Counted from the first letter of the stretch, positions 8,241 to 34,866 are shown. The stretch: 64,000 nt of DNA from Psammoneis japonica (GCA_008632985.1 QPGO01000001.1:1024404-1088403), one strand, 5' to 3'. Program-made: numbers and translations. Notes: a model not told the origin generated them from the sequence alone.

Positions 8241-8619
8241 CACAGAAATGCTCATCTTGCACCACACTTCTGCACCAGCATGTGAGTTCAAAGATGTTGG
8301 CAAGTGGATTTGACAAAAGGCGCCACAAGATTGGACATGTTGGTGATGCAAACAGTGGCCACAGCTTTTGACACTCAGCGTTGGCACGCCAGATGTTTTT
8401 TTTTTCTGAGAAAGTCCCATGTTCTCATGTGCAGCATGGTGTGGCATGCAGAATGAGGCTCTGAGGCAAAAATGTGATCACAGGTCTCTGCATGACTTCA
8501 GCGCCAGGGAGCTGTTTGCACATTGTCACATGTGGCCAGCTCAAGACTTGGAGCAACTCTGGGCATCAGAAGATTTGTCATTGCAGTCATTCAGAGTTGT
8601 CTGTTGCGCCACTCTGCTT

Positions 8620-10820: not shown

Positions 10821-11749
10821 GTTCAGCACCGCAATTGTGAAGGGCAGGGCCCCACTGTTGTGCCGGCAGAAGTTTGGTGTCGACTGATGACGAATGCACC
10901 TGATCACGACTGAACACGTCATCTGATGCGTCATCATTGCAAGACTCAGCACGTCATTTCCGAACCCCCAGTGATGTGGAACAAGTCTGCGTCACCAACT
11001 GCACTCCACTTTCGCACTCGCATTTCAATGCTTGCTGAGAATTTGTTGTGATCTTGTCATTTTGAACAGACATTTTGACCTTGTTGCAGTTTCAGGTGTC
11101 ATGATGTTTGCCTTTTTTCATGACATCATTCATGCAGTGGACAGGTGAAAAATGATGTGGAGAGAAAAGCATGGTGTGGGGGGGCACACACACTTGTTTG
11201 TCGCCATTGTGGCTGCTTTTTTGCAGGTCAGACAGCTTCAAAAAGGTTTGATCAAAGATGTTGCAGAGCAAACAGTGGGTGCAATGCAGCAAGCCCAGAA
11301 AGATCAAGCTTGCTGAGGAGAGGCTGTGGCGGCAATGCTGCTTTGGTGGGGGGGTCCTCCACTCCCCCCTCAAGCAAGCAGAAAAGGCGATGGGAGCAAG
11401 CCACCAAGTTGTTGGCTGCAGCTTTCACAGTGGTGGTGCAGAAAAAAACAACAACCTGGCCAAATTTCCATCAGGAACATCATGGCAGGCAGACCAGCAA
11501 GCATGAGAGGCTGCCCTTTCCCAGCACCAAGCACCGCCACAAATGCCAAAGCAAAAGTCAGCTCTGCTTTCTAGATCAGCAGGGGTGATGGCCATGGGTG
11601 AAGCCTTTCCATGCAGCAGCATTGCGGAGGCTTTGCAGCTTGATTTGGTGGCTGAGCTTTCTTCTCAGCAAAAGCAAAGGTTCAAAAAGTGGCACATGTT
11701 TCTGTTTCCTTCAATGCTGGCATGGGCAAGGACCTGCTGAAGGTCAATG

Positions 11750-12964
11750 TAGAGAGGTGAAAAACGGCAAGGCAGACCAGGGTGCAGAGTTGATGCAGTG
11801 CCAATGACAAGGATGCAACTGATGATCCATCATCTTCCTGAAGTGCAATGATGCTCTCCGGACAGCCGCTCATGGCGGCACCGTGCGCACATCCCCAGCC
11901 ATGGGCATCTTCATCAAAGGGCATGGCTTCACCCTCAAAAAGAGCTTGTCAATGCCAACAGGTTTTTGGACAACATCAAAGGCACAGTCATGAAAAGCTC
12001 CTGCTTTTGCCCAACAAGCACAACCTGTTTGAATGTGTGGTTCCTTGACCCAGTTCTGAACAATGCAGTTGACAAGCATTGCTGAAGCTCGTCCATCAAA
12101 CATTTCATCCAATTCTGTCATGATGCCATCTGCAACTTCCTGATCACTGGCCTCATTGATGCATTGATCCACAATTGCTCCACAAAGAAAGAGCCCCAAG
12201 ATGCCAGTGCATGTTGTTTGGCCAAAAGTCTCATCTCTCACAGCCTTCCCTCTTGCAAAAAAAAACTCAATGAGAGGTCTTCCAATTCGAATTCTTCAAA
12301 GTCACGTTCAATCACAAGCTTCAAAAGAAAGAAGTTGTCAGCAAATTTACAAAACACCTTGATCCCAGGGGCCATTTCACAGTCATCAATGGCCTCGGGT
12401 GTGACTGTCGGGTGAATCTGGAACAAAGGAAATGAATGGCCTTGTTCTGCAGCATTTGCAAGGATGCCATCACAATCACACACGATGCTTGAAATGAGTC
12501 TCTGTTTTTGCATGTGGCTTGGACTGGCATGATGCTGCAGTCCACTTCCATCACTGGACAATTGAGACCAACATCTTCTGGCTCAAAGTTGATGCCAGTT
12601 GGTCATTGAGAAAGCCCCACCATGTTGAATTGACCCACTGCTTGCAGTCATCTTCCAATTCAGATGCAGCACAAATCAAAGAACCATCAAAGACAGACAT
12701 CTCTGAGAAGTCATGCTTGACTGTGGAAATGGTGCTTGTGACATCTTCATCTGCAATGAGATTCAAAAGTGGTGCTGGATCACCCCCCGTGAATTCACTC
12801 TCCACCAACATCAATGAGAAAGTCAGCAAAGGTGTCATTTTTTTCAGCTGACTGCCAATGCCATCCAATGCCTCAAGAATCGCACAGGAAAGACCCGCTT
12901 GTTCCAAGTGGCAGGCTGCTGTCAAACCAGCTGCACCCGCTCCAACAATGAGAATGTCCATCAT
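11750..12964 (-). pseudogene. Third, more degraded amine oxidase copy
   Basis: MMDILIVGAGAAGLTAA...LEALDGIGSQL; APGIKVFCKF; WVKEPHIQ; multiple frameshifts; essentially TA-free. Confidence 0.8.
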
Positions 12965-13473
12965 GTTCAGCCTGACATCGCATCACATTGAAGAGAAGAA
13001 AGCAGAAAAACATCATGCCAAGTGCAGCAGATCTGTCTTCTGCATTCCGCTGCAATGTGCACAACTGACGCAAAGTGCAACTGACTCAGCATCTGAACAT
13101 TTCACACAGCATGCCAGACAACAATCTGTCAAACACAACGAATGCAACATTGCATTCATTCTGCCATTCCGTGATGCAACCACTTTCTGGACACACTTTG
13201 CATGATGCGAGTCCCAGCAAGTGTGCTGCACCTTGCGAGTGACATGCTGCATCTCTTCTCTTCTTCATTGGAAGTGAGATGCAGCAACACAGTGACAGCT
13301 GGCTGGCAAAGCAGGGAAACTGTGTTTCTTCTTGCTCAGAAGCACCCCCTGTGGTTGTTTGAGGGCTGGCGGGCTGAGCACAGAAAACTGCTTCTCTGAG
13401 TTGCTGGTCAATTCTCATTGACAAAGTCAGCTGGCTTCACAAACTGCTGAGATGGGCAAAGAAAGAGAAGTGC

Positions 13474-13530
13474 AAGAAGAAGAAGAAGAAGAAGAAGAAG
13501 AACAGGAAGCAGAGCAAGAAGAAGAAGAAA
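13474..13530. repeat. (GAA)n microsatellite
   Basis: aagaagaagaag... run with a second shorter run. Confidence 0.9.
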
Positions 13531-14714
13531 AAGAGTTTGCTGTCTCTGTGGGGCAACCAGTGTGCTGTCTCCAGCACTGATGCCACTCACCACTTGGGTG
13601 GCAGGGCTCCACCCTCCATGGAATGCTGGCTGTGCAATTTTGCCTTGATTTGTCCTTGTGCCTTTTCTCACTGCCAATGTGCACCTGCAATGGATTGCAC
13701 AAGAAATGTGCTCTCTTTGTGTGATGCTTTGTTTGACATCATCTCAAAGCATCAAAACACTGCCATGGTTTCTTCCAATCATTGATGAGACAATGACATT
13801 GAATGCAAAGAATGATGTGGGGCTTTTGACCCACCAGGTGGTTGGCAGGTTAGATGCAGCAAAATCACCTGATTTTGGTGAATTAAGAACATGCACATCT
13901 GGGTTCCTTTGGTCAGTTTAGACTGCCACACATGTTGAGTGTCATCACCACATGTCTAAAAAGCTGTGTGTTTTCATGGCATGTGATGTCACAACTTGAA
14001 TTTGCATCCAATGCAATGCACAAAACAAGCAAACAACAAAAAAACTGCATCTCTCACCATGGGGCTTGTTTGTTTGCATGTCTGTGGCAACATTGTCCAT
14101 CAAGGTGAGAGCATCATCACACAACAATCAGACAGTGCTTGATTTGATGGTTGTGTTAAATTTGTTCTTGTTGATGCTTGCTGGCATGCTGCATTTAGAC
14201 ATGCAAACAAGCAAAGTGCCAGCTAACTTTTCTGTTGTTCTCATGACCGTGATGCACATGTGATGAGTCTGCAAGCACTGAGTTCATTTTCAATTTAGAT
14301 GGCTGCATGCACATCCAGTGAAAAAAGACATTTTGGTTTCCAAGTGAGGCAACAGTTTCATCAACAATGCACTGTCTGTAACTTTTAGCAAGGAGTGATG
14401 ACATGTCCTTGTTGACACACATCTGAGATGGCAACATCAGATCTGTTGTGTCAAGCTGGTCTGTTGCATCATTGCTCGTCACTTTAGAAGCCTTGTGCTT
14501 GTTGCTTTTTCAACCAACACTTCAGCTGAATTTTTTGTTCCTCTGTTGACTGCATGCCACAGCAAATGCAATGCACCCCATGCTTTGTCATGGGACAATG
14601 CGGGAAACCAAACTGTGCAATGGACTGGAGGAGCTCTGAGCCATTGGCAACCAGATCTGTGGCTGCTGGCAATGGTCTTTTCATGTGACAGATTTGTGAG
14701 TCAGCTGCCATCAT

Positions 14715-15305
14715 CATCCGTTGGCACTCAAGGTGGTGAGAGCCTTTTCGCTGCTTGTGAGGGCAGTGGTGGGAGTCTTTGTGTGGTTGGAGCCTGTGTG
14801 CCACTGCCAGCACCATCTTTGCATGGTTGGAGCCTGTTTGCTGCTGGCACTCAAGGTGGCGGAAGCCTTTTTGCTGCTTGCGCTGGCGGCAGTGGTGGCG
14901 GGAGTCTTTTTTTGCAGTTGGAGCCTGTTCACCACTGGCACTCAAGGAGGTGGGAACCTTTTTGCTGCTTGCGTGGACAGCGGCAGGAGTCTTTGTGTGG
15001 TTGGAGCTGCTCCAGGAGGTGGGAACCTTTTTGCTGCTTGCGTGGACAGCGGCAGGAGTCTTTGTGCGGTTGGAGCCTGTGTGCTGTGCCAGCACTGTCT
15101 TTGTGTGGTTGGAGCCTGTTCACTGCTGGCACTCAAGGTGGTGGGAGCCTTTTTGCCACTTGCACTGATGATGGTGTGAGTCTTTGTACAATTGGAGCCT
15201 GTGCACCGCTGGCACTTGAGGCGGTTGGAGCCTTTTTGCTGCTTGCACTGGTGATGGGAGTCTTCTTTGCACCACTTGCACTGGTGGCGGGGTTGGAGTC
15301 TTTGC
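14715..15305 (-). repeat. Degenerate coding-like tandem repeat (ASSKKAPT / SASGEQAPT units)
   Basis: Recurrent gtggttggagcctgt and ggagcctttttgctgcttgc motifs; minus-strand peptides TSASSKKAPT, HASSKKVPTS. Confidence 0.65.
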
Positions 15306-17264: not shown

Positions 17265-18218
17265 CTTGAAATGATGAAATCAAGTGATTGCGTTGCGAGT
17301 TGAGACATTTACTACACCATTTTTACTCCGAGTGTAAGGTTTTATACCGGTACATTTTACAGTACATGTATTTTACTGCTTGCTTGCTGCGCTGTCGCGG
17401 AATTTTGTGACGTTGCATGCCTGACGTCATCGCGGAGTACGGGGTGCGGTTTCCTACAGCATCTGCCGGCCGGCACTGTGATGCACTGTCTGTCTCATCG
17501 CTGCTACATCTGCAGTGTAACAAAACATCATGTGCGTCAAGCATGTTGTTTGATGTCAGAAGCATGCATGGGGGAAAGCACAACAATTTCTGCCACAATG
17601 TCGCTGCAGAAGTCGGCCGATTTAGACATGCAATTGCGCCCACCACTCAGAGGTCATGATCTCAGCACTCACTGCCAACAAACTCTCACATCATGAGCAC
17701 CTGGAAAAGCCATTTCCTCCAAGGAAATCTTGTTGCTGTGCAGCTCAGGTGGCCAATGGCCAATGGCAAGGGAAAAAAACAGCAGGCAACACAAACTTTT
17801 CAATGGGAACCTCAAATTTGCCCTCTGACTTGCCTGTCTCATCAGCCATCAAGTGAGACAACCACACACAGGAGCACTCTGAAAGGTTGTGTGCCGGCCA
17901 TGGCAAAGCTGTCACAGCATGATTTCTCAAAAAGCAGCCTCCAAAGGGAAACAAGCACTCAACAAACTTGTGACATGCAAAGCCCTCTTGAATGGCTTTG
18001 GATGTTCTGGCAATTTCATCATTGAACACATTGAAAAGAGGTTGTGGGTGCAATTTGCAGGTCGTTGGCCCATGTGCAGCTGCAGCATTTGCTGCTGCTG
18101 GAGTTGAAGGTGGTTGTCTTTTGATGCTCTGCAGAGCTCTCAACCAAAACAAAAATGGAGACATCAGCAGCAGGGCAGAGTGAAGCAAAGTTCTCAGCAT
18201 TTGTTCGGTTGCCAAGTG

Positions 18219-18476
18219 GCCTGTTCCAGCTCCAGGTGCTCCGCGCGGGTTCGATTCCCATCATTTGGAAATTTGTGCATTCAGCGCAATCAACTTTTTC
18301 CAAATCCGTTTTTTGCCAAATCGAAGGGTGAGTGCACACTTTACATGCATTTTCGGGTGTACACTCACCTTTCGATTTTCGAAACGATCAAAATTGAAGG
18401 AGTTAATTGCGCTAAACTGCGCAGAAAATCGGCCTCTCGCGTGATAAAAAGCAGAGCACCTGGAGCTGGAACAGGC
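18219..18476. mobile_element. MITE-like element, 258 bp
   Basis: Perfect terminal inverted repeat gcctgttccagctccaggtgctc / gagcacctggagctggaacaggc flanked by direct repeat CAAGTG (18213-18218, 18477-18482). Confidence 0.8.
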
Positions 18477-18658
18477 CAAGTGCTGTTGCAAGCCAGCCAG
18501 CCATGTGACAGAAACTGCAGCTTGGCTTTGGTGAGAGAGTTTTCTGCATTGGATCAATCATTTGGTGTTGGCACTGCATCCTGTGCTCTGGTTCATCAAC
18601 AGGATGCCAGACAGAAGAAAAATCAAACCATGAAGAGCATTCTCTTGCTTGTTCTTGG

Positions 18659-18934
18659 TGACAGAAATTGAAGGCAAATGGCAAGAATTCAAACAATGAC
18701 TCCTTGCTGCTGTCTAAACAGCAGATGAGTCTCCGCTCAGAGACCGTCACAGGAGCCGAAAGACGTGCAAGTCGGTGTGATCGGGCTGCTGTTGTCATCC
18801 TTGTGAGCCTTGTGGCTCGAAAGCAAACTACATCGCGCGTGAACGCGCGGAACTAAAGCACACAAAACTGTGCGCGGCAAACTAAACTGCGCGTGACACT
18901 TCGCGCGCACCCAAATCCTGTTCAAATCCTGTCA
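18659..18934 (-). repeat. 3' LTR of outer Copia
   Basis: tgacagaaattg...aaatcctgtca, adjacent to PPT. Confidence 0.95.
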
Positions 18935-20254
18935 CTCCCCAGTTTGCTTGAGGAGTCACAGAAACAGATTCAACTTCGGATGGAATGAAGTTCCAGAACA
19001 TGAGGGGGCGGAGAAGGTCCCAGATTTGGGAGCAACCCCAATGCTTGCTGAGAATGTCAGCAGGGTTGCGGGAGCCTTCGATGAAGTGGAACTCAAGGTG
19101 GCCAGAGGCAATTGCCTCACGCACACGGTGGAACGACAGTGCGGTGTGTCGCTTGTGCAACTTGGAGTGCGGGATGGTGGCACTGTCTACAACCGACTTG
19201 TTGTCACCGAACATGCAACTGACATTGCGGATTGGGACGCCAAGGTGGCGCAGGGTGATGCGCAGGTCGACAATCTGCTCAACACAAGTCCTTGCGGCAA
19301 CAAATTCAGACCCGCAGGTCGCAGTCTCCACGGTGGCTTGCTTCTTAGAGAACCAATCAGCCGGGAATTTGTTGAGGAAGTGGAGCATTCCCATGACAGA
19401 GCGTCCGGTGAGCATGCAATGGCACAAGTTTGCATCGACGTAGTGGGTGGCAGTGACGAACTTGCCAAGGGGCGGTGGAGCGTCCTTCGGGATCATCTCT
19501 TCTGCTTCGCCATGCACGGAATGCATCCATTCACAGGCCGGAGCAGGGAGATCCGAACAGTCGGGCTCTTCCGTGCGAACGTGGAGAGCACCGTGTCGCA
19601 TCTTGGAGAGGTGCCCACAGACGCGTTTGGCATGATCCAAGTGGCCTTGACGGGGCGCAGCTCGGAAGCCAGAGAGTGACATGACGGCCGTGGCAATGTC
19701 AATTCGACCAAGGGACACTGCCCATTGGAGTGAACCAACAAGAGACTGGAACTTGTGAATGCCATCGGGTCCCAGCAGTTCGGAAGTGTCCAGTTCGGGG
19801 TGGTCACCCTTCTCCAGAGGTGACAGGGCATTGGTGGTGGGTTTCTCCCCAAACAGTCGGGCGCAGCTGTCGACCATGTGCTCGATGTACTTGCGCGGAG
19901 ACAGGCACAAGGTTCCGTCAGGATCCCGGGAAAAGTCGCAACCCAGATGGAACTCAATGGGTCCCGCACCCTTGAGCTTGAACTTGTGCTTTTCCGTGAG
20001 AGTGTCGACGAAAGATTGAGGGTCCTTCATGGCAATGGCGAGGTCATCCACATAAACGGCAATGTGTTCACAGTGGTCGCCGTTCCTGCGCATCCAAATG
20101 TCGGGTTCGGCGCAGCAGGGGAAGAAGCCTTCAGCTCGCAGGCAGTCGGCGAAGCGCTCGTGCCAGCGGAGACCGGAGCTGCGCAGTCCATGCAGTGCCT
20201 TGTGGATGACAAGGATGTGTCCTTCGAGTTTGCCAAATTCGGGTCCGGCTGCAA
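18935..20254 (-). pseudogene. RT (3' part) and RNase H of outer Copia, Tyr-depleted
   Basis: HKALHGL, AVYVDD, YVDAN, SEFVA, FGDN, ADILSK; matches 20531-21850 at an offset of 1596. Confidence 0.9.
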
Positions 20255-20530
20255 TGACAGAAATTGAAGGCAGGTGGCAAGAATTCAAACAATGACTCCT
20301 TGCTGCTGTCTAAATGGCAGATGAGTCTCCGCTCAGAGACCGTTGCAGGAGCCGAAAGACGTGCAAGTCGGCATGGTCGGGCTGCTGTTGTCATTCTTGT
20401 GAGCCTTGTGGCTCGAAAGCAAACTACATCGCGCGTGAACGCGCGGAACTAAAGCACACAAAACTGTGCGCGGCAAACTAAACAGCGCGTGATGCTTCGC
20501 GCGCATCCAAATCCTGTTCAAATCCTGTCA
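20255..20530 (-). repeat. 3' LTR of inner Copia
   Basis: 276-bp copy of the same LTR, PPT adjacent. Confidence 0.95.
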
Positions 20531-23500
20531 CTCCCCAGTTTGCTTGAGGAGCCACAGAAACAGATTCGACTTCGGATGGAATGAAGTTCCAGAACATGAG
20601 GGGTCGGAGAAGGTCCCAGATTTGGGAGTGACCCCAATGCTTGCTGAGAATGTCAGCAGGGTTGCGGGAGCCTTCGATGAAGTGGAACTCAAGGTGACCA
20701 GAGGCAATTGCCTCACGCACACGGTGGAACGACAGTGCGGTGTGTCGCTTGTGTAACTTGGAGTGCGGGATGGTGGCACTGTCTACAACCGACTTGTTGT
20801 CACCGAACATGTAACTAACATTACGGATCGGGACGCCAAGGTGGCGCAGGGTGATGCGCAGGTCGATAATCTGCTCAACACAATTCCTTGCGGCAACAAA
20901 TTCAGATCCGTAGGTTGCAGTCTCCACGGTGGCTTGTTTCTTGGAGAACCAATCAGCCGGGAATTTGTTGAGGAAGTGGAGCATTCCCATGACATGGCGT
21001 CCGGTGAGCATGCAATGGTGCAAGTTTGCATCGACGTAGTGGGTGGCAGTGACGAACTTGCCAAGGGGCGGTGGAGCGTCCTTCGGGATCATCTCTTCTG
21101 CTTCACCACACACGGAATGCATCCATTCATAGGCCGGAGCAGGGAGATCCGAACAGTCGGGCTCTTCCATGCAAACGCGGAGAGCACCGTGTCGCATCTT
21201 GGAGAGGTGCCCACAGACGCGTTTGGCACGATCCAAGTGGCCTTGACGGGGTGCAGCTCGGAAGCTAGAGAGTGACATGACGGCCGTGGCAATGTCAATT
21301 CGACCAAGGGACACTGCCCATTGGAGTGAACCAACAAGAGACTGGAACTTGTGAATGCCATCGGGTCCCAGCAGTTCGGAAGTGTCCAGTTCGGGGTGGT
21401 CACCCTTCTCTAGAGGTGACAGGGCGTTGGTGGCAGGTTTCTCCCCAAACAGTCGGGCGCAGCTGTCGACCATGCGTTCGATGTACTTGCGCGGAGACAG
21501 GCACAAGGTTCCGTCGGGGTCCCGGGAAAAGTCGCAACCCAGATGGAACTCAATGGGTCCCGCACCCTTGAGCTTGAACTTGTGCTTTTCCGTGAGAGTG
21601 TCGACGAAAGATTGAGGGTCCTTCATGGCAATGGCGAGGTCATCCACATAAACGGCAATGCATTCACAGTGGTTGCCGTTCCTGCACATCCAAATGTCGG
21701 GTTCGGTGCGGCAGGGGAAGAAGCCTTCAGCTCGCAGGCAGTCGGCGAAGCGCTCGTGCCAGCGGAGACCGGAGCTGTGGAGTCCATACAGTGCCTTGTG
21801 GATGACAAGGATGTGTCCTTCGAGTCTGCCAAATTTGGGTCCAGCTACAATGTAAAGCTTCTCCTTGGTGGTGGCTTCAAGGTAGGCATTGCCAATGTCG
21901 GTGGCCCATGTCTCTAGCTCGTTGAGTTCGGCCAGGAAAATCATCAGCCGAAGGCCACGGAGGGAGACTACTCCGGAGTAGACACTGTCGATAGGTACGT
22001 CCGTGAGGTGCCCGTCGGCTACGAGTCGTGCCTTGTGGCGACCGTCGTGTTTCACGTCGTACACCAGGTGCACTCGGATCTTCTTGTGTCCCGCAGGAGG
22101 AGTGGAAGACTTGAAGGGCCCGCAGTCATGGAAGACTTCGTATTCGTCGAGTTGGTCCATCTCGAGATTAGTTGCGTCTCCCCACTTGCGGTTGCCGTTG
22201 CGTTCGTCTAGTGACATGGCGTGTTTGTAGTTCCGGGGAACTTCGTGTCCGTGCTTGCAGTGAGGTGCAGTGCAGAAGGAGCGAAGCTTGGCTTGGTTGG
22301 CCATGCGAAACAGCTTCTTTTGGCGCCTCGCGATGGTGCGGAACCGCTTCCAGCCATCCGTGTCGAGGAGTCCGTTCTCTCGTGCATAGATGGCACAGGT
22401 GACGGGGTCGTCCTTGGCGATGATGGCAAGAGGCTCGGACGTGATCTCCCCACTTTCCCATTCAAGCATGATGTTGTAGCTTGAGCCTTTCCAGGTTGGG
22501 TCGTGAGGCTTCAGAGGTCCTTCGTGTGACACGATGCGTCGAAATTTCCAAATGGTGGTGTCTTCGTCTTCTTGCTCAATGTGATTCATGATGTCATTGT
22601 GGGCAAGGACTTCCTCGTATTCGTCATTGTTGACAGAGCAGACGAACTTAGTGAGCTCGGGATTGCCGTTCACTTTCCATTCGTGGTCTTCGACGGCCTT
22701 GACGATGCGAGCTCTGTGGCGTTGTCCGTCCTCTTGTGGCTGCATGAGGAAGGTACGTCCAATGATGTCTTGCGGATCGAAAACTGGCATCTTGGGTGTC
22801 CTGATCTCCCCATCAGGAGAATCGACGGGGTTGTCGTCATGGCGAGATTTGATGATGGGTTCAGGTGGCTCCCCATCAGGAGGATCAAGACGCAGGTTTC
22901 GAACGGCAGGATCGGGGGTGGCGGAGCGAACGTTGGACCGGCAGAGGATCTTCTGAGTCTCGTCAGATAGAATCTTGAAGGTCATCTGGTGGCCGACGTG
23001 CTCAGCAATGCCAACGAAGCGTCCACGCAACTCACGGGATTCGGACGGCCAATCGGAGTCATCGAGGTGGAAGTGCACTGGTTCCCACCAGTGAAAGCGA
23101 AGCAATGGGCTGATGTCCGGGGTGGATCCAGTGAGAGTCTCGAGGGGCGTGCGCCAGTGGAGACGTGGGGACGCTGCATGGTTGAGCATGAAGCACACGT
23201 GCATGAGCGCCAGCAGCCATGTGTGGGCGGGCGAACCAAAACGGTCCATGACAGTGTTCGCCATGCGCTTCACAGTCTGGTGTCGACGCTCGGCAAAGTT
23301 TTGGTGTTGCTGGTGAGGCTCACTTTGCCAGCTGGAGATGAAGAGGGCACGTAGGATCCCGAGCACTTTGTTGCTGATCTCAACTTGAGCACGGTCGCCA
23401 ATGAGTTTGGATGGGGCACCACGTTCACGGATCTGATCCTCGAGTGTGTTGACAAACTCTTTGTCCGTCTAGTGCCGCAGACGTCAGTGACGTAGACTCG

Positions 23501-26500
23501 GTGCCAACAAACAGTTGGGCGCTGGTGCAACCAGAGTCAACGGCCGGGGTGTCGGCACAAACGGTGTCAGTGGCGACAGGCTCGTTGCGGCGGTGCACAT
23601 TAAGGGCGGGGTTGGGTGATTTGCAGGCCTTGCGAAGGTGTGTACCGGCGGGCATGCGGGCGCACTGCGTGGTGCAGTCAAAAGTACGACGGACCGCATC
23701 GGCAGGTAGGAAGCCAAAGCAAGGCCGAAGAGACTCGAAGGGGGGGTCCTTGGGCTGTACAGTGCGCTCCGGAGGTGGAACGTCATCGCCCTTGGGGTCA
23801 ATCGCATGCAGATGACACTCGTAGAACACGTCGTCGTTCGGAATGAGGTGATCATCGAGGGCGGACGCGTGATCGGCAGACAAGGAAGCGGACAAGATGG
23901 TCTCGTTGACAACGACACGGTGACGGTAGTTGCCGCATTCGTCAAATGGGTTGGCAGTGGGATCGTCCTGCAGGTCAGAGATCGCGTCGTACCACTGGTC
24001 GTCGTCAGTGACAGAGTGATCGAGGACGGAAGGGTCCCATGTGTCATCACCGGTGAGGATGACATGGGGCAGGGTGTCCCATTCGGCGTCAGTGCAAGGT
24101 CGCATGGCAACACAAGGCAGGCCAGCCTTGATGTCAATGGGGATGACATGGCCATCAGGAGTGGCAACACGTTGCAAGCCGTTGGGCACCTTGACAGAGC
24201 GATCGTTGACATCCTGTTTGTACCATTCGAGCTGGCCGCAGGAATGGATGGTCTTGCCCTTGCCCGTGTGTGCGCACTGATGGAGGATGGCGATGACGGG
24301 ACCACGCTGGGTCTCAATGACGGCACCAGCGGTGACAACAGGGATGTCCACCAATTGATGATCGTCAATGCCCTGAACGTTGACTTGGCGAGAGGTGCGT
24401 GCAATGACGCAAACGTCGTCGCCAGCAATGCCGCCGTTGGCCCCACGATCAACTAGAGCGCCAGTGCGTGTGGAGCGATGAGCAGAGGCAGAGCAAATGA
24501 CATTGTGGTTGTCAACGCGGCGGCAAGTGCGGCCGTTAAGTTCCATGTCATCTGCAGAAGCTGGCGGGGTAGAGGAAGCGGCGGATGGCCCTGGTCGACT
24601 GGCATTGGGGGCTTGGTTAGGAGACAACAGACGTTGCAGATCACCGGGTGGCAGTGGCTTGCGCTTGGTGAGGTGCGCCAGGATGGGATTGTCTGAAGTG
24701 GCGTCAACATGTGGAGCAGAGTCACCAGAGTCAGCAGGAGTCGTGTTGGACAAGTTGACATCACCGTCACTCCCAAGGCGTTGGTCGTGAAGGTTGGCCG
24801 TAACAGACTCATGGTAGTTGCTGGCTCGCGGGTTGCAGGGAGGCGGACGAGAATGCTCAAGGATGATCGCCTTGGAGGAATCGGGCAATGAATCCCAGAG
24901 CCGTTGGTGGTCGGGAGGGAGACGTCTCCATTGGACACCGGCGAGGCTGGGACCGCGGGTGCAGGCAGCATTGGCTTGAAGGACGTCAACGTCGCTGTCA
25001 ATGTCGTAGAACACATCGTCGGACAGTTCCTCGGAGTGGACGTCGTGTGCGTGTGTGGCGCGTCGGGGAGCTCGAGGTGTCGTCTTGGGTTGAAACGTGC
25101 TGTCGCACTGAGCTGCCGCGGAGAGGAGCAAGCCACAGCATTGATCGCATGTGAGGCTCTTGCCACTCTGCGTGCGATGCTGATCAGCTTGGTTCTTGAC
25201 AGCACGGAGTTCCTCGACAGGGTGCACGGCATTCTCGAGCATGACGCGCTTCTGTCCTTCAGAGAAGTGGTCACTGGCCGGGATGAGTGCCTTGTACTTG
25301 CGCAACTGATCTTGCCAATGAAGGATGAACCCGTGGGTCGGACCTTTCCAAGTGCCATCACCAAGACGTGCGGTGGTGAGGTGCGTGAGCAGGGTGGAGG
25401 ACTCGACAGATGCGCGGGTGGAGGCAAGCGCGTGCTCAGACAAGGAGCGGTAGACGGTCTGTGCGTCAGAAGACCCCACATTTTCGCGAATGAGAGCCTT
25501 GCCCTTGTCGGTGAGAAGGATGCGTTCGAAGACGGCGAACATGTACTTTTGCTGTTCAGCAAAGAGCAGTTTGTCTTCGGGGCTGGTCGGTTTGTACGAC
25601 GAGTCTAGAATGCACTCGACGTCTTGGGCACGGGCTTGTGCCACAAGTGAGGTGTGCCAAGTTTGCCACTGCTTGTCGGATTTGAGGGCCGTGAAAGCGG
25701 TGGGATCACGCTTGATGCCTCGCTTGAAGTCCCGCACCGGGTCGCGTGCCTTGGTCGGGTTGGTGACATGTGGAGGTGCAAGGGGTGAGCTGCCGATGGA
25801 CACAGAAGACATGTGGTCGGGGCTGAGGCGGCAGGCAAGGAACTCGTCATGCGTGAACAAGGAGGAGTCGTTGGCAACGTCAAGACCTTTGTGTGCTTTG
25901 ACAATGTACAGACTGACTAGTGCTGCTAACATGTTCTTATAACCACGGGGCAAAGGGATTGCATCAGTGCCGTTGTCGTACTCAAGCGAGTCGATTTGGG
26001 ACGGTATGAACGTGAATAGTTCCTGATGCGAGTCCGTGCCGTCTTGGGCCAAAGCCAAACGAAGAGGACTCCCAGCACCTTGGGCAAGCACGGTTCCAAC
26101 AACGTGCTCGAAACCATCGGTTTGTTGCTGACGAGTGAGAACCATGGTAGACAAAAGTGGTGTCAGGACAATCAATTCTGGTTGGGAAGCGAAGGTAGAC
26201 TCGAAACTTGGGTGAGAATAGACTTGACGTGAAACAGACTTGACTTGAAATCTTGAACTATCTTAAAATCAGAAGTCACCGGGCTTTGTTATCCCGTTCG
26301 TTGTCAAGTGCTAAACTTCCTATCCGGTCCGTAGAGTTGTGCCGGCACGTCCGAACCCGCAGCTGGTGGCGCTTTGGGTTGCTTACGAGCAGAGTAGCGG
26401 GTTGTAAACCCCTGCAGGTAAGCTGACTAGAGGTGGACAAGACCCCGAACCGTTCTTATTTTATATCGGTTGGATTTCCCGATCAGGCTGGCCAGTTGAC

Positions 26501-26852
26501 GTGGGCGTCAGGCGCTGTGAACGAACGAACAAACGCGGGAAAGCACCCTCGCCCCAACGTAGGCTGTAATCACGGCTACTTGCTCTCACAGTCGTCCTCG
26601 TGGACCTAGTAGAACTGTAGAGCACCAGCAGTCCGGGGTAGATCAGGTGCAATGGACTCGGTGTGCTTGTAGAGTGGCAGCAAAACCGCAGTCCGAAGAG
26701 TGGATAAAGGTTCTTGGCCGTGAAGACATGCATGCACACACACATGTCTTCAGCGACTAAGATCCTTGAATGTGTAGGGTTCTTGACCGTTAACCGAGGA
26801 ATGGGCACGTCAAGGGATGTTGATCAAGGACAGACTTGGATGTGACCGTTGA
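20255..26852 (-). mobile_element. Inner Copia copy (UTR-gag-pol-3' LTR; 5' LTR missing)
   Basis: ORFs 23425..26175 and 20478..23366 (split by two 1-bp deletions near 23470-23495); LTR 20255-20530 abuts the outer RT. Confidence 0.9.
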
Positions 26853-29800
26853 CAGTTGCGTCTCCCCACTTGCGGTTGCCGTTGCGTTCGTCCAGTGACA
26901 TGGCGTGTTTGCAGCTCCGGGGAACTTCGCATCCGCACTTGCAGCGAGGTGCAGTGCGGAAGGAGCGAAGCTTGGCTTGGTTGGCCATGCGAAATGGCTT
27001 CTTTTGGCGCCTCGCGATGGTGCGGAACCGCTTCCAGCCATCCGTGTCAAGGAGTCCGTTCTCTCGTGCGTAGATGGCACAGGTGACGGGGTCGTCCTTG
27101 GCGATGATGGCAAGAGGCTCGGACGTGATCTCCCCACTTTCCCATTCAAGCATGATGTTGTAGCTTGAGCCTTTCCAGGTTGGGTCGTGAGGCTTCAGAG
27201 GTCCTTCGTGTGACACGATGCGTCGAAATTTCCAAACAGTGGTGTCTTCGTCTTCTTGCTCAATGTGATTCATGATGTCATTGCAGGCAAGGACTTCCTC
27301 GTGTTCGTCATTGTTGACAGAGCAGACGAACTTAGTGAGCTCGGGATTGCCGTTCACTTTCCATTCGTGGTCTTCGACGGCCTTGACGATGCGAGCTCTG
27401 TGGCGTTGTCCATCCTCTTGTGGCTGCATGAGGAAGGTGCGTCCAATGATGTCTTGCGGATCGAAAACTGGCATCTTGGGTGTCCTGATCTCCCCATCAG
27501 GAGAATCGACGGGGTTGTCGTCATGGCGAGATTTGATGATGGGTTCAGGTGGCTCCCCATCAGGAGGATCAAGACGCAGGTTTCGAACGGCAGGATCGGT
27601 GGCAGCGGAGCGGATGTTGGACCGGCAGAGGATCTTCTGAGTCTCGTCAGATAGAATCTTGAAGGTCATCTGGTGGCCGACGTGCTCAGCAATGCCAACG
27701 AAGCGTCCACGCAACTCACGGGATTCGGACGGCCAATCGGAGTCATCGAGGTGGAAGCACACGGGTTCCCACCAGTGAAAGCAAAGCAATGGGCTGATGT
27801 CCGGGGTGGAGCCAGTGAGAGTCTTGAGGGGCGTGCGCCAGTGGAGACGTGGGGACGCTGTGTGGTTGAGCACGAAGCACACGCACATGAGCGCCAGCAG
27901 CCATGTGTGGGCGGGCGAACCAAAACGATCCATGACGGTGTTCGCCATGCGCTTCACGGTCTGGTGTCGACGCTCGGCAAAGTTTTGGTGTTGCTGGTGA
28001 GGCTCACTTTGCCAGCTGGAGATGAAGAGGGCGCGTAGGATCCCGAGCACTTTGTTGCTGATCTCAACTTGAGCACGGTCGCCAATGAGTTTGGATGGGG
28101 CACCACGTTCACGGATCTGATCCTCGAGTGTGTTGACAAACTCTTTGTCCGTCTTAGTGCCGTAGACGTCAGTGACGGTAGACTCGGTGCCAACAAACAG
28201 TTGGGCGCTGGTGCAACCAGAGTCGACGGCCGGGGTGTCGGCACAAACGGTGTCAGTGGCGACAGGCTCGTTGCGGCGGTGCACATTGAGGGCGGGGTTG
28301 GGTGATTTGCAGGCTTTCCTAAGGTGTGCACCGGCGGGCATGCGGGCGCACTGCGTGGTGCAGTCAAAAGTACGACGGACCGCATCGGCAGGTAGGAAGC
28401 CAAAGTGAGGCCGAAGAGACTCGAAGGGGGGGTCCTTGGGCTGTACAGTGCGCTCCGGAGGCGGAACGTCATCGTCCTTGGGGTCAATCGCATGTAGATG
28501 ACACTCGTGGAACACGTCGTCGTTCGGAATGAGGTGATCATCGAGGGCGGACGCGTGATCGGCAGACAAGGAAGCGGACAAGATGGTCTCGTTGACAACG
28601 ACACGGTGACGGTAGTTGCCGCATTCGTCAAATGGGTTGGCAGTGGGATCGTCCTGCAGGTCAGAGATCGCGTCGTGCCACTGGTCGTCGTCAGTGACAG
28701 AGTGATCGAGGACGGAAGGGTCCCATGTGTCATCACCGGTGAGGATGACATGGGGCAGGGTGTCCCATTCGGCGTCAGTGCAAGGTCGCATGGCAACACA
28801 AGGCAGGCCAGCCTTGATGTCAATGGGGATGACATGGCCATCAGGAGTGGCAACACGTTGCAAGCCGTTGGGCACCTTGACAGAGCGATCGTTGACATCC
28901 TGTTTGCACCATTCGAGCTGGCCGCAGGAATGGATGGTCTTGCCCTTGCCCGTGTGTGTGCACTGATGGAGGATGGCGATGACGGGACCACGCTGGGTCT
29001 CAATGACGGCACCAGCGGTGACAACAGGGATGTCCACCAATTGATGATCGTCAATGCCCTGAACGTTGACTTGGCGAGAGGTGCGTGCAATGACGCAAAC
29101 GTCGTCGCCAGCAATGCCGCCGTTGGCCCCACGATCGACTAGAGCGCCAGTGCGTGTGGAGCGATGAGCAGAGGCAGAGCAAATGACATTGTGGTTGTCA
29201 ACGCGGCGGCAAGTGCGGCCGTTAAGTTCCATGTCATCTGCAGAAGCTGGCGGGGTAGAGGAAGCGGCGGATGGCCCCAGTCGACTGGCATTGGGGGCTT
29301 GGTTAGGAGACAACAGACGTTGCAGATCACCGGGTGGCAGTGGCTTGCGCTTGGTGAGGTGCGCCAGGATGGGATCATCCGAAGTGGCGTCCACATTTGG
29401 AGCAGAGTCACCAGAGTCAGCAGGAGTCGTGTTGGACAAGTTGACATCACCGTCACTCCCAAGGCGTTGGTCGTGAAGGTTGGCCGTAACAGACTCATGG
29501 CAGTTGCTGGCTCGCGGGTTGCGGGGAGGCGGACGAGAATGCTCAAGGATGATCGCCTTGGAGGAATCGGGCAACGAATCCCAGATCCGTTGGTGGTCGG
29601 GAGGGAGACGTCTCCATTGGTCACCGGTGAGGCTGGGACCGCGGGTGCAGGCAGCATTGGCCTGAAGGACGTCAATGTCACTGTCAATGTCGTAGAACAC
29701 ATCGTCGGATGGTTCCTCGGAGCAGACGTCGTGTGCGTGTGTGGCGCGTCGGGGAGCTCGAGGTGTCGTCTTGGGTTGAAACGTGCTGTCGTGCTGAGCT

Positions 29801-30861
29801 GCCGCGGAGAGGAGCAAGCCACAGCATTGATCGCATGTGAGGCTCTTGCCACTCTGTGTACGATGCTGATCAGCTTGGTTCTTGACAGCACGGAGTTCCT
29901 CGACAGGGTGCACGGCATTCTCGAGCATGACGCGCTTCTGTCCTTCAGAGAAGTGGTCACTGGCCGGGATGAGTGCCTCGCACTTGCGCAACTGATCTTG
30001 CCAATGAAGGATGAACCCGTGGGTCGGACCTTTCCAAGCACCATCACCAAGACGTGCGGTGGTGAGGTGCGTGAGCAGGGTGGAGGACTCGACAGATGCG
30101 CGGGTGGAGGCAAGCGCGCACTCAGACAAGGCGCGGCAGACGGTCTGTGCGTCAGAAGACCCCACATTTTCGCGAATGAGAGCCTTGCCCTTGTCGGTGA
30201 GAAGGATGCGTTCGAAGACGGCGAACATGTGCTTTTGCTGTTCAGCAAAGAGCAGTTTGTCTTCGGGGCTGGTCGGTTTGTACGACGAGTCTAGAATGCA
30301 CTCGATGTCTTGGGCACGGGCTTGTGCCACAAGTGAGGTGTGCCAAGTGTGCCACTGCTTGTCGGATTTGAGAGCCGTGAAAGCGGTGGGATCACGCTTG
30401 ATGCCTCGCTTGAAGTCCCGCACCGGGTCGCGTGCCTTGGTCGGGTTGGTGACATGCGGAGGTGCAAGGGGTGAGCTGCCGATGGACACAGAAGACATGC
30501 AGTCGGGGCTGAGGCGGCAGGCAAGGAACTCGTCATGCGTGAACAAAGAGGAGTCGTTGGCAACGTCAAGACCTTTGTGTGCTTTGACAATGTGCAGACT
30601 AACTGGTGCTGCTAACATGTTCTTATGACCATGGGGCAAAGGGATCACATCAGTGCCGTTGTCGCACTCAAGCGAGTCGATTTGGGACGGCATGAACGTG
30701 AATGGTTCCTGACACGAGTCCGTGCCGTCTTGGGCCAAAGCCAAACGAAGAGGACTCCCAGCACCTTGGGCAAGCACAGTTCCAACAACGTGCTCGAAAC
30801 CATCGGTTTGTTGCTGACGAGTGAGAACCATGGCAGACAAAAGTGGTGTCAGGACAATCAA
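26853..30861 (-). pseudogene. gag-PR-IN of outer Copia, truncated before RT
   Basis: 1345-aa ORF: LVDRGANGG protease; VATDTV / LIGDRAQVE / NFAERR integrase core; homology breaks at ...WGDAT where the inner UTR begins. Confidence 0.9.
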
Positions 30862-31770
30862 TTCTGGCTGGGAAGCGAAGGTAGACTCGAAACTTGGGTG
30901 AGAACAGACTTGACTTGAAATGGACTTGACTTGAAATCTTGAACTATCTTAAAATCAGAAGTCGCCGGGCTTTGCCATCCCGTTCGTTGTCAAGTGCTAA
31001 ACTTCCCATCCGGTCCGTAGAGTTGTGCCGGCACGTCCGAACCCGCAGCTGGTGGTGCTTTGGGTTGCTTGCAAGCGGAGCAGCGGGTTGCAAACCCCTG
31101 CAGGTGAGCTGACTGGAGGTGGACAAGACCCCCGAACCGTTCTCATTTTATGTCGGTTGGATTTCCCGATCAGGCTGGCCAGTTGACACAGGCGTCAGGC
31201 GCTGTGGACGAACGAACAAACGCGGGAAAGCACCCTCGCCCCAATGCAGGCTGCAATCACGGCTGCTTGCTCTCACAGTCGTCCTCGTGGACCCAGTGGA
31301 ACTGCAGAGCACCAGCAGTCCGGGGTGGATCAGGTGCAATGGACTCGGTGTGCTTGTAGAGTGGCAGCAAAACCGCAGTCCGAAGAGTGGGTAAAGGTTC
31401 TTGGCCGTGAAGATGTGTGTGTGCATGCATGTCTTCAGCGACTGAGATCCTTGAACATGCAGGGTTCTTGACCGTTAACCGAGGAATGGGTGCATCAAGG
31501 GATGTTGATCAAGGACAGACTTGGATGTGACCGTTGAACACATGTCTTCAGCGATCAAAGGTGGCACAATCAATCCAGACATCCAGCGGCAAGGAGACTT
31601 GACGGTGACGTTAACTTCCTGCCGATGCCCTGGCATTGAATGCGCGTGGACTTGCCGATGTATGTAGAACATGTGCGGAGGTCCACGTGGGATTGAAATG
31701 GCGTCGTTGGTAAATCAACGACGACGATGGCGGTTGCTCAATGGGTTGACAATGAGCAAGACTGTCAATC

Positions 31771-32046
31771 TGACAGAAATTGAAGGCAAACGGCAAGAAT
31801 TCAAACAACAACTCCTCACTGCTGTCTAAACAGCAGATGAGTCTCCGCTCAGAGACCGTCACAGGAGCCGAAAGACGTGCAAGTCGGTGCAATCGGGCTA
31901 CTGTTATTATCCTTGTGAGCCTTGTGGCTCGAAAGCAAACTACATCGCGCGTGAACGCGCGGAACTAAAGCACACAAAACTGTGCGCGGTAAACTGAACA
32001 GCGCGCGATACTTCGCGCGCACCCAAATCCTGTTCAAATCCTGTCA
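31771..32046 (-). repeat. 5' LTR of outer Copia
   Basis: 276-bp LTR followed by TSD cttgg. Confidence 0.95.
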
Positions 32047-32849
32047 CTTGGCTTCTTTTTGCAACGACAAGAAAATCTGACAATCTGCACCCCCCGCAAC
32101 ATGTCAGCACATGTTTTGGTGCAGGGGCTCCACCAGCACACTCATGCCAGATCAGATCAGCCATTTTGTCAGGTGGAGTTGAGATCTGTCACCTCTCCTT
32201 CCTGAGCTGGCTGCCATGCAGAGGCTTGGCAAAAAAACCAGCAAGATCATTTCCTCTGCAGGGCAGCACTCTGCTCTGGCTTCCCCTGCCTTGTTGGTGT
32301 TGCCAGCAACAAGAAAGTGTGAGGTGTCAACACACTGAGTGTGGCGCCTGCTTAAAGCTCAGTTTTTTTTTGTTCCAACAACATGGTGCTTTGGCTGTTC
32401 TGGAATGATCTGCTGTCATTGACCCCACGCCCCCCCCCCAGCCACATTGGAACATTTCTTGTTTCCATGCTGCCAGGGCATGCTGCCATCCAATCAGTCC
32501 AGTTTGCTGGCCCCAGTCAGTTGAGTTCTCTCAGCGCTGAGCTTTTGTTCAGCAGAGAGTGAGTTTTGTGAGCTTGGTGCACGGCAAATGAAGCATCAGC
32601 CCATTGCCATGGCTGCATCATCATTGGCCTCAAGGGCAGGTGTCAGGTGTCCATCCCATCTCCCCCACACAAGTGTTGGTTGCACTGCCCAAGCCTTTTC
32701 CAGTCATTCTTGTTGCGGGCTTGGCTGCCCCAGTGGAGAAGAAAGACACCACCATCTGCATGTGTCCGGCTTTCTGCCCTGAGCAACAGGTGCGGCAACC
32801 CAGCTGTGAAGTGACAACAATGCCCAACCTTGTCAGAGTGGATCATTGA

Positions 32850-33700
32850 GAGCTGAGTCCAGGGCAAAGGCCGCCAATGTCATCTGGCGAACCACCTCCA
32901 TTTTGCAAAAGATGCAGCCCTTTATGACAAACTTGACCTTGCCACCTTCAGAGAAGTCTCTGATCATGCCTTTCATTGAGCAAGTTGGAAACCCCTTGTT
33001 TCAACATCACTTGCACTGTGAAGGACATCTTCACATGATGAGTGTCGTCCATGTGCCACATGAGATGACACGCTGCTTGCCATTGGTGGTTTTGCTTGCC
33101 ACACACTGCAGCCACAGGGGTCAATTTCAAATCCAAAGTCATCACATGGGAAACAGGAGAACAGGTTTTTCTGGAGAAGCAGGGCTCCCTCCTGCAGGCA
33201 CTGCAAAGCTCCTTTTTGAGTTCCACATGCAGTGTGAGGGCTTTCCATTTGCCCCCCCCCCCCCATGCTTGCAGCACCTCTCAAAACAAACCCTGCAGAG
33301 GGTCAGTCACTGCATGGGTTCACAAGGAACATCAGCAGCTGAGACCTTCTGTCTTTTCCACATGTCAACATCTGACAACAGGAACAATGCCTGGTTGTCA
33401 ATGGTGGGAGCCAAGATTTCCTCCTTGGTCTTGTGTGGTTGCTGTTTTCCGCCATCAGCACAACCTTGGCTCTTCATTGCATCATCTCATTTCTGAATGA
33501 GGTGTGTGGGTGTCTCAGAGCATCCTTCTTCTGCTCTTCAGTGACATCCATGACAAAGAGCTGCAGGTTGAACAACTTCCTGTGGCCAAGCTGTTTCAGC
33601 TCCTTGACAACCACATCTGCTCCAGCCTGGCCAAACATCTTGCTTGAAGCCTTGTTTCTTGATGGGCTTCTGTTCCACGAGGAACGCAGGACTCCCACAT
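32850..33700 (-). mobile_element. Older, heavily degraded Copia RT relic of a different family
   Basis: FGQAGADVVVKELKQL, VTEEQKKDALRH, LHVELKKELC (cf. LYVxLKKALY), GFEIDPC (cf. GFxxNPYD), WHMDD (cf. WHVDD); both TA and CG nearly absent. Confidence 0.7.
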
Positions 33701-34866
33701 GTGAGGCAGGTTTTGAAATGCCAGAGGACCAGGCACAACTGCTGGTCTGTCTCCCTGACAAGTTGGTGGCTGCAGCCACTCTCCCCACAGTCTTGGAGAG
33801 GATGCAGGTGTGTGGGGTTTTCTTTGTCCACAGGTGCCTTCCTTGTGTTCTGCTGAGCCCAGGTTCTTTTTGGGCTTTTCATTGTTGTCTTGGCATTGGA
33901 GTCCAAGTCAGAGTCACATTTGGCCTTGTTCAGATTGGGCACAGAGCTGCATTGTCCAAATTGTCATCTGGCATGTTGTGAACAGGTTTTGATTTGCTGT
34001 CTTTGAGCTGTTGTAACACTCTGTTGTCTTCAACATTTGCCTGCCACTTGGGCTCATCATTGTGATGGTCACTTGGCTCTTTATCTCCTTTGGCATCTCC
34101 CAGCACTCCTGTGTCATTGCATTTGCAGCTGCCATTCTCCTGCAGGCCAAAGTGGAAAGGGTGAGGAGACAGGCTCTGGCAAGTCTTGGAAGGCAGTCTG
34201 TGCCACTTGTTCAGGTTGGGTGTTGCACAATTGACAGCACTGCTCAAGAGCACATCAGCAGCCTTCAGATTTTTCTGGGTTGTCTGGGCTGTCTGGGAGG
34301 AATTGTTTTGTGAAAAGAAAGCCTCTTTTGGTTTCAACTGTTGCAGAAAAAGAAAGAGGCCTGATCATCTCTTCTTGACTCTCTCTCTCTCTCTCTCTCC
34401 CTCGAACGAACGAACGATCAAAATTGGCGAAGCCAATTTTCCGTCAAATGTGACAAACAATGGCAATACAAGTAGCTAAGGTAGAGCTACTTATTCGGAT
34501 ATTTATCCAACTATTTCAGTAATGGCAGGCACAACAACGTTGGCCGAAGTCAGGAGAATGAGACTTTCGCGGTGGCTTCATCAGCGGCCGGCTGTTGTTG
34601 TTAAGAATCGGCACACCCGTGATGGCATGGTTAACAGTTTTAGGGGATGAGGACAAGTGCCAGTCTACTGTCAAACTACTTTGACCACAAGTGTCGTAGA
34701 TTCAGCTACATGTACAATTGATTTTAGTAGAGATAGCACCGCCATCACCGCTAGCTTGTTTGTCGCTGGCTGGACGTGTAGCGGACACATGCTAAGTGGT
34801 TAACAGAACAGGTGAAATTAGAAATTTATCTGTGTAGAGCACCTTGTTTAGAATCTATCCAGTGCG

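Follow-up and report, generated by a model that had tools for sequence, protein, structure and literature searches.

Probable regional hypermutation of TpA in a Copia-type retrotransposon and other repeats of the diatom Psammoneis japonica

A Ty1/copia-type long terminal repeat (LTR) retrotransposon on the minus strand of a 64-kb stretch of Psammoneis japonica DNA (the window; all coordinates count along its whole length) contains two copies of its polyprotein region, which differ by reciprocal cysteine and histidine residues. The original prediction explained these residues by independent hits on ancestral tyrosine codons, and our analysis supports this explanation. It is likely that a regional process acting at the DNA level turns TpA into TpG or CpA in islands of repeats or silenced DNA, sparing genes and spacers. 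The changes lie in TpA context and run in the A:T>G:C direction, they arose after integration of the element, and they are restricted to particular regions. The window is a new instance of TpA hypermutation, a phenomenon described only very recently.

The region 18659-32046 was identified as one Ty1/copia-type retrotransposon because it matches the Pfam domain RVT_2, carries 276-bp LTRs with TGACAG...CTGTCA termini and is flanked by a perfect 5-bp CTTGG duplication. The inner copy comprises 20255-26852 and the outer copy the rest of the element. The features of the locus are listed below with their ratios of observed to expected dinucleotide counts (o/e); RT stands for reverse transcriptase, ORF for open reading frame and aa for amino acids.

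18654-18658: left target-site duplication CTTGG, read directly from the sequence; the same five bases lie beyond the opposite LTR
18659-18934, minus strand: outer 3' LTR, 276 bp, TGACAG...CTGTCA termini in element sense; TpA o/e 0.26
18935-20254, minus strand: block A1, C-terminal part of the outer polyprotein with a partial RVT_2; TpA o/e 0.08
20255-20530, minus strand: inner LTR, the third LTR copy (self-BLAST and LTR comparison)
20531-21852, minus strand: block A2, C-terminal part of the inner polyprotein (self-BLAST); TpA o/e 0.23
21853-22169, minus strand: segment x, N-terminal part of the RT domain, single in the locus; 10 TA, TpA o/e 0.67
22170-26852, minus strand: block B1, N-terminal two thirds of the inner polyprotein, ORFs 23425-26175 and 20478-23366; TpA o/e 0.31, CpG o/e 0.95
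26854-31537, minus strand: block B2, outer counterpart of B1, ORF 26824-30861 of 1345 aa; TpA o/e 0.16, CpG o/e 0.92
31538-31770, minus strand: segment y, leader between the 5' LTR and block B2, single (self-BLAST); TpA o/e 0.30
31771-32046, minus strand: outer 5' LTR (self-BLAST and LTR comparison)
32047-32051: right target-site duplication CTTGG, read directly from the sequence

Self-BLAST aligned the block A pair, including its LTR (20255-21852 with 18659-20256), at 95.8% identity with 67 mismatches in 1598 columns, and the block B pair (22170-26852 with 26854-31537) at 96.5% identity with 158 mismatches in 4686 columns. In Pfam searches, RVT_2 was matched by the inner ORF 20478-23366 at residues 423-635 (E 2.6e-28) and by the ORF 18882-20288 of block A1 at profile positions 110-229 (E 7.4e-13). 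No further copy of the element was found within the 64-kb window; its family is very abundant in the sequencing runs, where 12480 contigs of run X1 were matched to the 6.6-kb inner copy.

All 17 inner/outer peptide pairs quoted in the original prediction were recovered at homologous coordinates. A frame-corrected walk along 1791 aligned codons, to which the following codon counts refer, yielded 15 Cys/His pairs, every one of them CAY against TGY (11 with His in the inner and Cys in the outer copy, four the opposite). Tyr of the inner copy faces Cys or His of the outer copy at 16 positions and the reverse, inner Cys against outer Tyr, occurs once, so the inner copy does usually keep the Tyr, as had been stated. 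Tyr codons number 24 in the inner and nine in the outer copy, eight being common to both, and Arg stands against Cys or His at 12 sites, six in each direction. Transitions account for 208 of the 225 substitutions between the copies; 183 of the 225 lie inside aligned pyrimidine-purine (YpR) dinucleotides and 42 outside. The 37 adjacent doublets of TG against CA are far above chance, as 2000 shuffles preserving the substitution spectrum gave 1.11 on average and never more than 6. The dinucleotide states of the two copies are as follows.

TA in both copies: 37 sites
inner TA, outer TG or CA: 28 + 22 sites
inner TG or CA, outer TA: 2 + 3 sites
TG against CA: 15 + 22 sites
inner CG, outer TG/CA: 26 sites
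inner TG/CA, outer CG: 28 sites
TA against CG: 0 sites

CpG is retained in both copies at 415 sites.

The ancestral residues were deduced from homologs, 120 of which (45-67% identity) were aligned with the RT/RNase H half and 150 representatives with the N-terminal half. Tyr, and not Arg, Cys or His, prevails at 11 of the 15 Cys/His columns, as expected if the pairs reflect independent hits on ancestral TAY codons, and Arg is the commonest residue at none of the 15. In the RT half, Tyr is commonest in eight of nine such columns and the ninth shows Phe (57) ahead of Tyr (47); the six columns of the N-terminal half have Tyr as the commonest residue in three cases, His followed by Tyr in one and hydrophobic residues in two. 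We further defined 33 Tyr-conserved columns with Tyr in at least 60% of the homologs. Here the inner copy has 13 Tyr, 6 Cys and 9 His in 32 columns (Tyr to Cys or His in 15 of 32) and the outer copy 4 Tyr, 12 Cys and 6 His in 27 (18 of 27), compared with 3317 Tyr, 25 Cys and 126 His among 3888 residues of the homologs. Overall, Tyr amounts to 4.4% of the residues of the homologs but falls to 1.7% in the inner copy and 0.6% in the outer. The DNA agrees with the protein: across the RT region, 80 metagenomic relatives have a median TpA o/e of 0.71 (range 0.27-1.12) at a GC content of 0.48, and the values here are 0.26 for the inner and 0.09 for the outer copy at a GC content of 0.56-0.57. For the whole element, o/e is 0.24 for TpA, 1.32 for TpG and 1.45 for CpA.

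Arg codons of the type CGY had been named as another possible source of Cys/His pairs. Such changes do occur at true Arg columns, since one copy has Cys or His at seven Arg (or Arg/Lys) columns of the RT half; the pairs themselves do not in the main have this origin, Arg being commonest at none of them. Decay of CpG to TpG or CpA is therefore a real, second, slower process of minor extent. In an outgroup-free calculation from the 415 kept and 26 + 28 singly lost CpG sites, CpG ancestors explain about one of the 37 doublets. A simple model gives a loss per lineage of about 48-75% for TpA and about 6% for CpG, an order of magnitude apart, and the copies still have a CpG o/e of 0.83-0.95 while that of TpA is 0.12-0.31. 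In addition, 40 of 271 variable places were viewed against the depth of family copies in the runs. Where about 99-100% of the family depth differs from the inner copy, the family mostly has CpG and the inner copy CpA or TpG, which represents private losses of the inner copy. At inner TA sites, the family share of other states is 20-91% in eight of the nine sites viewed and 100% at position 25295. Position 23990 has TA in the inner copy, TG in the outer copy and CA in 80% of the family depth, and three states also occur at some other sites; these mixtures agree with recurrent independent hits.

Both LTRs of a retrotransposon are identical at the time of integration. Comparison of the outer 5' and 3' LTRs gave 15 differences, of which 14 fall within YpR dinucleotides: six are TA against TG or CA, six positions belong to three TG/CA doublets, two are CG against CA and one is a transversion. 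One LTR site even reads TA, TG and CA across the three LTRs. Since LTRs of one element with a target-site duplication diverged by YpR changes, the changes arose in DNA after integration. Hypermutation occurred in the integrated DNA, and on both strands: the sense-strand outcomes TG and CA number 50 and 37 in the outer copy, 17 and 25 in the inner copy, and 67 and 62 when pooled. They are also interleaved, with 44 runs observed and 43.4 expected; the runs test on the Copia pair revealed no clustering into strand-specific tracts and no sign of processive single-strand events. Balanced and interleaved outcomes therefore argue against editing of the genomic RNA as well as against long single-strand tracts.

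Depletion of TpA extends over much of the window, where 1-kb bins show o/e values of 0.00-0.15 for TpA, 0.03-0.3 for CpG and 1.7-2.0 for TG/CA. The most depleted islands have a TpA o/e of 0.00-0.05 with TG/CA at 1.8-2.0, and of the 500-bp bins in the window 83 are depleted and 33 normal. Up to 1839 bp can pass without a single TA, at a GC content of about 50%, compared with 47 TA per kb in genic DNA. Besides the element, three islands stand out.

7074-13851: left-hand depleted island with duplicated amine-oxidase-like pseudogene pieces (bin scan, Pfam and repeat pairs)
32353-34014: right-hand flanking repeat island with two adjoining TA-free runs (570 + 1091 bp) containing 8 and 5 CpG; TpA o/e 0.00-0.05, CpG o/e 0.08-0.25
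43653-50779: three 2645-bp tandem units, each with a TA-free block of 1836-1839 bp (0 TA, 10 CG, 426 TG+CA; repeat pairs and scan of TA runs)

The array of tandem units spans 42874-50808. Its units are 99.7% identical, and about 800 bp beside each TA-free block still contain TA. When the units are compared in pairs, two of the three comparisons show TA opposite TG or CA at 10 of 18 differing sites, which suggests that the process is still active. The TA-free state of the most decayed repeats can only be an end state. In the left-hand island, the more decayed duplicate of the amine-oxidase-like sequence is 80% identical to its counterpart and differs from it by 19 TG/CA doublets and by CG against TG/CA at 42 and 5 sites. 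Here a fragment of a host-type gene has been hypermutated in the same way as the transposon. The amine-oxidase-like ORFs themselves, 9613-10991 (minus strand) and 11753-12971, match Amino_oxidase (E 5e-22, Pfam) and contain 0.7-1.4% Tyr and 3.3-3.8% Cys. A repeat pair at 60.4 and 62.2 kb has eight TG/CA doublets. Imperfect 83-bp tandem repeats at 15010-15295, 63-78% identical to the reference copy, lie at the edge of a depleted island.

At 34-42 kb and 56-60 kb, the host genes show a TpA o/e of 0.5-0.8, and the non-coding spacers beside them retain 0.74-0.98 for TpA and 0.79-1.35 for CpG. Host genes also contain plenty of TA across codon positions 3|1 (37 and 60 occurrences). A tandem pair of host genes with 80% identity served as an internal control; it has 119 transitions among 259 substitutions and just one doublet. 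The boundary is sharp, as a TA-free run ends near 34.0-34.5 kb beside a gene with normal TA. Because host genes, spacers and the control pair are normal beside depleted repeats, the process is regional and not a genome-wide bias masked by selection. Pfam searches of 46 ORFs outside the element left 37 without a match and found no transposon domains in the depleted islands; apart from the amine-oxidase pieces, the matches outside the element fall in normal regions. The six frames of 18000-32000 contain 40 ORFs of at least 100 aa in 16 kb, many of them long and on both strands. Long ORFs arise in depleted DNA because the loss of TA removes TAA and TAG stops, and they are no evidence for genes.

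Concerning the host genes themselves, the control pair (55968-59487) consists of intron-containing tandem genes, and the exons tested gave no Pfam match. Others among the host genes of the window are long and intronless, as would suit a diatom. Named homologs of two host genes came from diatoms only, Cyclotella atomus (35% identity) and Striatella unipunctata (30%), and a sulfatase-like gene matched bacterial sulfatase clusters only in the protein atlas.

A sequence motif extending beyond TpA was considered and dropped. Between the two Copia copies, the base after the mutated A is C at 55% of the 55 lost sites and at 29% of kept sites; across the window, TA survives least in ATAT and ATAC/GTAT and best in TTAA, CTAG and CTAC/GTAG. 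These pairwise and window-wide views disagree, and reverse-complement classes differ up to 2-fold. A dependence on duplication gave a similarly mixed picture: the single segment x has a TpA o/e of 0.67 and the likewise single segment y 0.30, the family is present in high copy number, and the diverged host gene pair is spared. The sparing of the locally unduplicated coding segment x is no more than suggestive of a behaviour similar to that of repeat-induced point mutation (RIP).

The original prediction also took the inner copy to be younger. The retention of TA in the inner copy only at 50 sites and in the outer copy only at five speaks for this view; the symmetric CpG losses (26 and 28) and the sharing of LTR states conflict with it, since nine derived states unite the inner LTR and the outer 3' LTR and are absent from the outer 5' LTR. 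To judge from these sites, the inner copy may be a local duplicate or gene-converted instead of a younger insertion, and the history of the locus could comprise nesting, local (two tandem) duplications or gene conversion. Retention is also patchy. The inner patch 25909-26852 has 5-12 TA per 250 bp and its surroundings as well as its outer homolog are depleted; 26 of the 50 TA sites kept in the inner copy only lie within 25755-26852, where inner TA density is near-genic. The surroundings of segment x, too, are depleted in TpA although its own o/e is 0.67. Such uneven and patchy loss suggests episodic activity of the kind reported for the chlorarachniophyte Bigelowiella natans, and does not by itself settle the history of the copies.

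The pattern recurs in relatives with 57-64% aa identity to the element. The metagenomic contigs L057 (1-1800) and L062 (634-2759) carry Cys or His at 63% and 39% of the Tyr positions and have a TpA o/e of 0.27 and 0.31, respectively, and the database protein P0078 has 12 Cys or His at 33 Tyr columns. It follows that other environmental genomes or elements undergo the process as well. These two contigs are the only positives among 80 metagenomic relatives, and the median Cys/His share over the 83 sequences tested is 0. In the run contigs the copies of the window are reproduced, as 3374 of the 12480 contigs contain pieces at least 99% alike, and the family copies are mixed at TA sites.

As a mechanism, we propose that either position of the palindromic TpA can undergo an A:T>G:C transition, by which TAY codons for Tyr would become TGY for Cys or CAY for His, independently in each copy, and would thus yield the reciprocal Cys/His pairs. 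A slower, ordinary decay of CpG to TpG or CpA in the same islands would then leave old repeats with TG and CA as nearly their sole YpR dinucleotides. An alternative would start from CGY codons for Arg, with methyl-CpG deamination on opposite strands producing the Cys/His pairs and later C>T steps, a GC>AT change as in RIP, producing the Tyr pairs. CpG>TpG/CpA is indeed real, as the seven Arg columns of the RT half with Cys or His in one copy show, and many of the private inner changes are CpG>CpA or TpG against about 99% of the family depth. The homolog columns (Arg commonest at 0 of 15 and Tyr at 11) and the doublets (about one expected from 415 kept and 26 + 28 lost CpG sites, 37 observed) nevertheless refute this route as the main cause; CpG o/e moreover remains at 0.83-0.95 where that of TpA has fallen to 0.12-0.31, and a GC>AT process would enrich the TpA of which the oldest repeats have none. 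We thus regard it as extremely improbable and keep methyl-CpG decay as a minor second process only. Editing of retrotransposon RNA from adenosine to inosine by ADAR- or ADAT-like enzymes before reverse transcription, with integration of the edited copies, would agree with the preference of ADARs for a 5' U mentioned in a preprint Discussion and with the many retrotransposition cycles of a very high-copy family (12480 contigs). It predicts A>G alone, at variance with 67 sense TA>TG against 62 TA>CA in both copies pooled; LTRs of one element with a target-site duplication differ at 14 YpR sites, and repeats that are not retroelements bear the same signature. RNA editing is accordingly a very unlikely source of the changes.

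Without any targeting, a neutral mutation bias across the genome or a GC-biased form of gene conversion could produce the pattern by removing TpA wherever selection is absent, with genes keeping theirs through purifying selection alone. The depleted regions do look unconstrained, considering the 37 of 46 ORFs outside the element that lack a Pfam match, and TpA is mildly under-represented even in genes (o/e 0.5-0.8). Selection on genes, however, would not explain a TpA o/e of 0.74-0.98 in the non-coding spacers on the gene side, the abundance of TA at codon positions 3|1 (37 and 60), the ordinary spectrum of the diverged host gene pair or the sharp boundary near 34.0-34.5 kb, and biased gene conversion would extend beyond TpA and oppose the co-occurring CpG>TpG. 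Taken together, an untargeted bias appears unlikely. Miscalls at modified bases of heterochromatin or a chimeric assembly of family copies deserve mention in view of the very high copy number and of the odd locus, in which a 5'-truncated inner copy stands in place of 317 bp of the outer one. Contigs up to 315 kb long, built separately from runs X1-X4, contain pieces at least 99% alike and imply accurate reads; the independent metagenome contigs L057 and L062 and the protein P0078 repeat the change of Tyr to Cys or His, and the pattern follows the boundaries between genes and repeats and comes with a matching target-site duplication. A sequencing or assembly artefact is hence most improbable.

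Several points weigh against a regional TpA-directed process as proposed here, or at least against its details. Because TpA is palindromic, A>G cannot be separated from T>C on the opposite strand; enzymatic deamination of adenine in DNA to inosine, read as G, would be the chemistry suggested by analogy, and a thymine-directed chemistry fits the data equally well. The process may likewise serve as a defence, guided by silent chromatin or by recognition of repeats. Runs X1-X4 come from one sample, possibly the source of the assembly, and polarising the changes by the majority of family copies gives ambiguous results at some sites, which makes it useful but not decisive. TpA loss is lopsided, 50 against 5, between copies with symmetric CpG loss, and the near-normal TA of the inner patch 25909-26852 and of segment x is not explained by a clock-like process.

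With these reservations, regional turnover of TpA in DNA has several consequences. To our knowledge, a mutation bias from GC to AT is near-universal, and a TpA-limited hypermutation from AT to GC counters this usual bias. Gene prediction can be misled, as hypermutated repeats keep long ORFs when TAA and TAG are destroyed. The signature of Tyr replaced by Cys or His offers a simple protein-level screen of metagenomes, in which two of 80 relatives were positive here. The putative enzyme responsible would be of interest to the base-editing field.

In comparison with diatom Ty1/copia elements, the retrotransposon studied here shares RVT_2, TG..CA LTRs, a 5-bp target-site duplication and a polyprotein of about 1900 aa, as in the metagenomic relatives (1862-2070 aa). 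It differs in that no Pfam integrase or gag match was obtained: integrase models gave no hit at E up to 1 in either copy or in intact relatives of 1862-2070 aa. Three intact-looking relatives in this size range (P0123, P0308 and P0327) have RVT_2 as their sole Pfam match; models of integrase, protease and gag stayed without a hit up to an E of 1. The N-terminal 916 aa of the element have 7269 homologs at E≤0.001; about 900 N-terminal aa of this lineage are conserved in thousands of database proteins, yet lack a Pfam description.

Fungal RIP changes C:G to T:A mostly at CpA, whereby it enriches TpA and creates stop codons. The process described here resembles RIP as a transition-only hypermutation of repeats in a dinucleotide context, which wrecks transposon coding sequences and spares genes; its direction differs, A:T>G:C at TpA, so that TpA vanishes, TAA and TAG are removed and long frames persist in six frames. 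A fungal-type RIP was rejected, TpA being depleted instead of enriched and outgroups placing the direction away from TA. The substrates of ADAR (A-to-I) and APOBEC (C-to-U) enzymes are RNA or intermediates of reverse transcription, and their editing leaves strand-specific runs. These enzymes have in common with our case deaminase-type transitions with a nearest-neighbour preference; here, by contrast, the changes are post-integration, affect both strands equally and form no runs. RNA hypermutation of the ADAR type was likewise rejected, both strands being equally affected and the LTRs of the integrated element having diverged by the same changes. Methyl-CpG decay is recognisable in the CpG>TpG/CpA changes of both copies (26 and 28 sites) and in the near-total CpG loss of the oldest repeats of the window; it contributes a minor share of the differences and is unable to make Cys/His pairs derived from Tyr. 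Diatom transposons are CpG-methylated through DNMT5a (PMC9998398), and this known methylation accounts for the slower CpG decay in the islands.

Apart from a single preprint of 2026 on B. natans, the literature searched contained no report of TpA-limited AT-to-GC hypermutation, and none for diatoms. According to that preprint, mutation-accumulation lines of B. natans acquired 231 mutations in two integrated viral regions, at roughly 1000-fold the background rate; every one lay at TpA, and nearly all were A>G/T>C. Its authors proposed an ADAT2-like DNA adenine deaminase as the cause, found reverse-transcriptase and DDE domains enriched among TpA-depleted coding sequences, and cite in the Discussion the preference of ADARs for a 5' U (bioRxiv 10.64898/2026.01.13.699255). 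The likeness is close: A>G/T>C is nearly exclusive and confined to TpA, with TpG or CpA depending on the strand (here together with CpG>TpG/CpA at 54 sites), and the process is regional with a normal remainder (here judged within 64 kb) and leaves a lasting TpA depletion with an excess of CpA+TpG. The host of that process is a chlorarachniophyte (Rhizaria) and ours a diatom (Stramenopiles). Its targets are insertions of nucleocytoplasmic large DNA viruses (NCLDV) and virophages, compared with an LTR retrotransposon family, tandem repeats and pseudogene duplicates here. The de novo rate is given there, whereas our process is read from its sequence signature; the NCLDV region has a TpA o/e of 0.45, whereas the window reaches 0.00 over 1.8 kb and has near-complete CpG loss too.

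This comparison suggests that the process is widespread among marine protists as a silencer of selfish DNA, similar to RIP and opposite in direction. A wider reading is possible but tentative: diatoms may have a dedicated DNA-editing defence, guided by chromatin or repeats and acting on double-stranded TpA through adenine- or thymine-directed chemistry, which would be shared or convergent with that of B. natans. Together with CpG decay it would empty silenced repeats of TA and CG and erase TAA and TAG, forming a mirror image of RIP that might be widespread in protists of the SAR group (stramenopiles, alveolates and rhizarians) and a source of a context-specific A-to-G editor of DNA. What connects the two systems is one and the same signature, which in the diatom is found on an abundant LTR family and on other repeats, where it has gone to completion.

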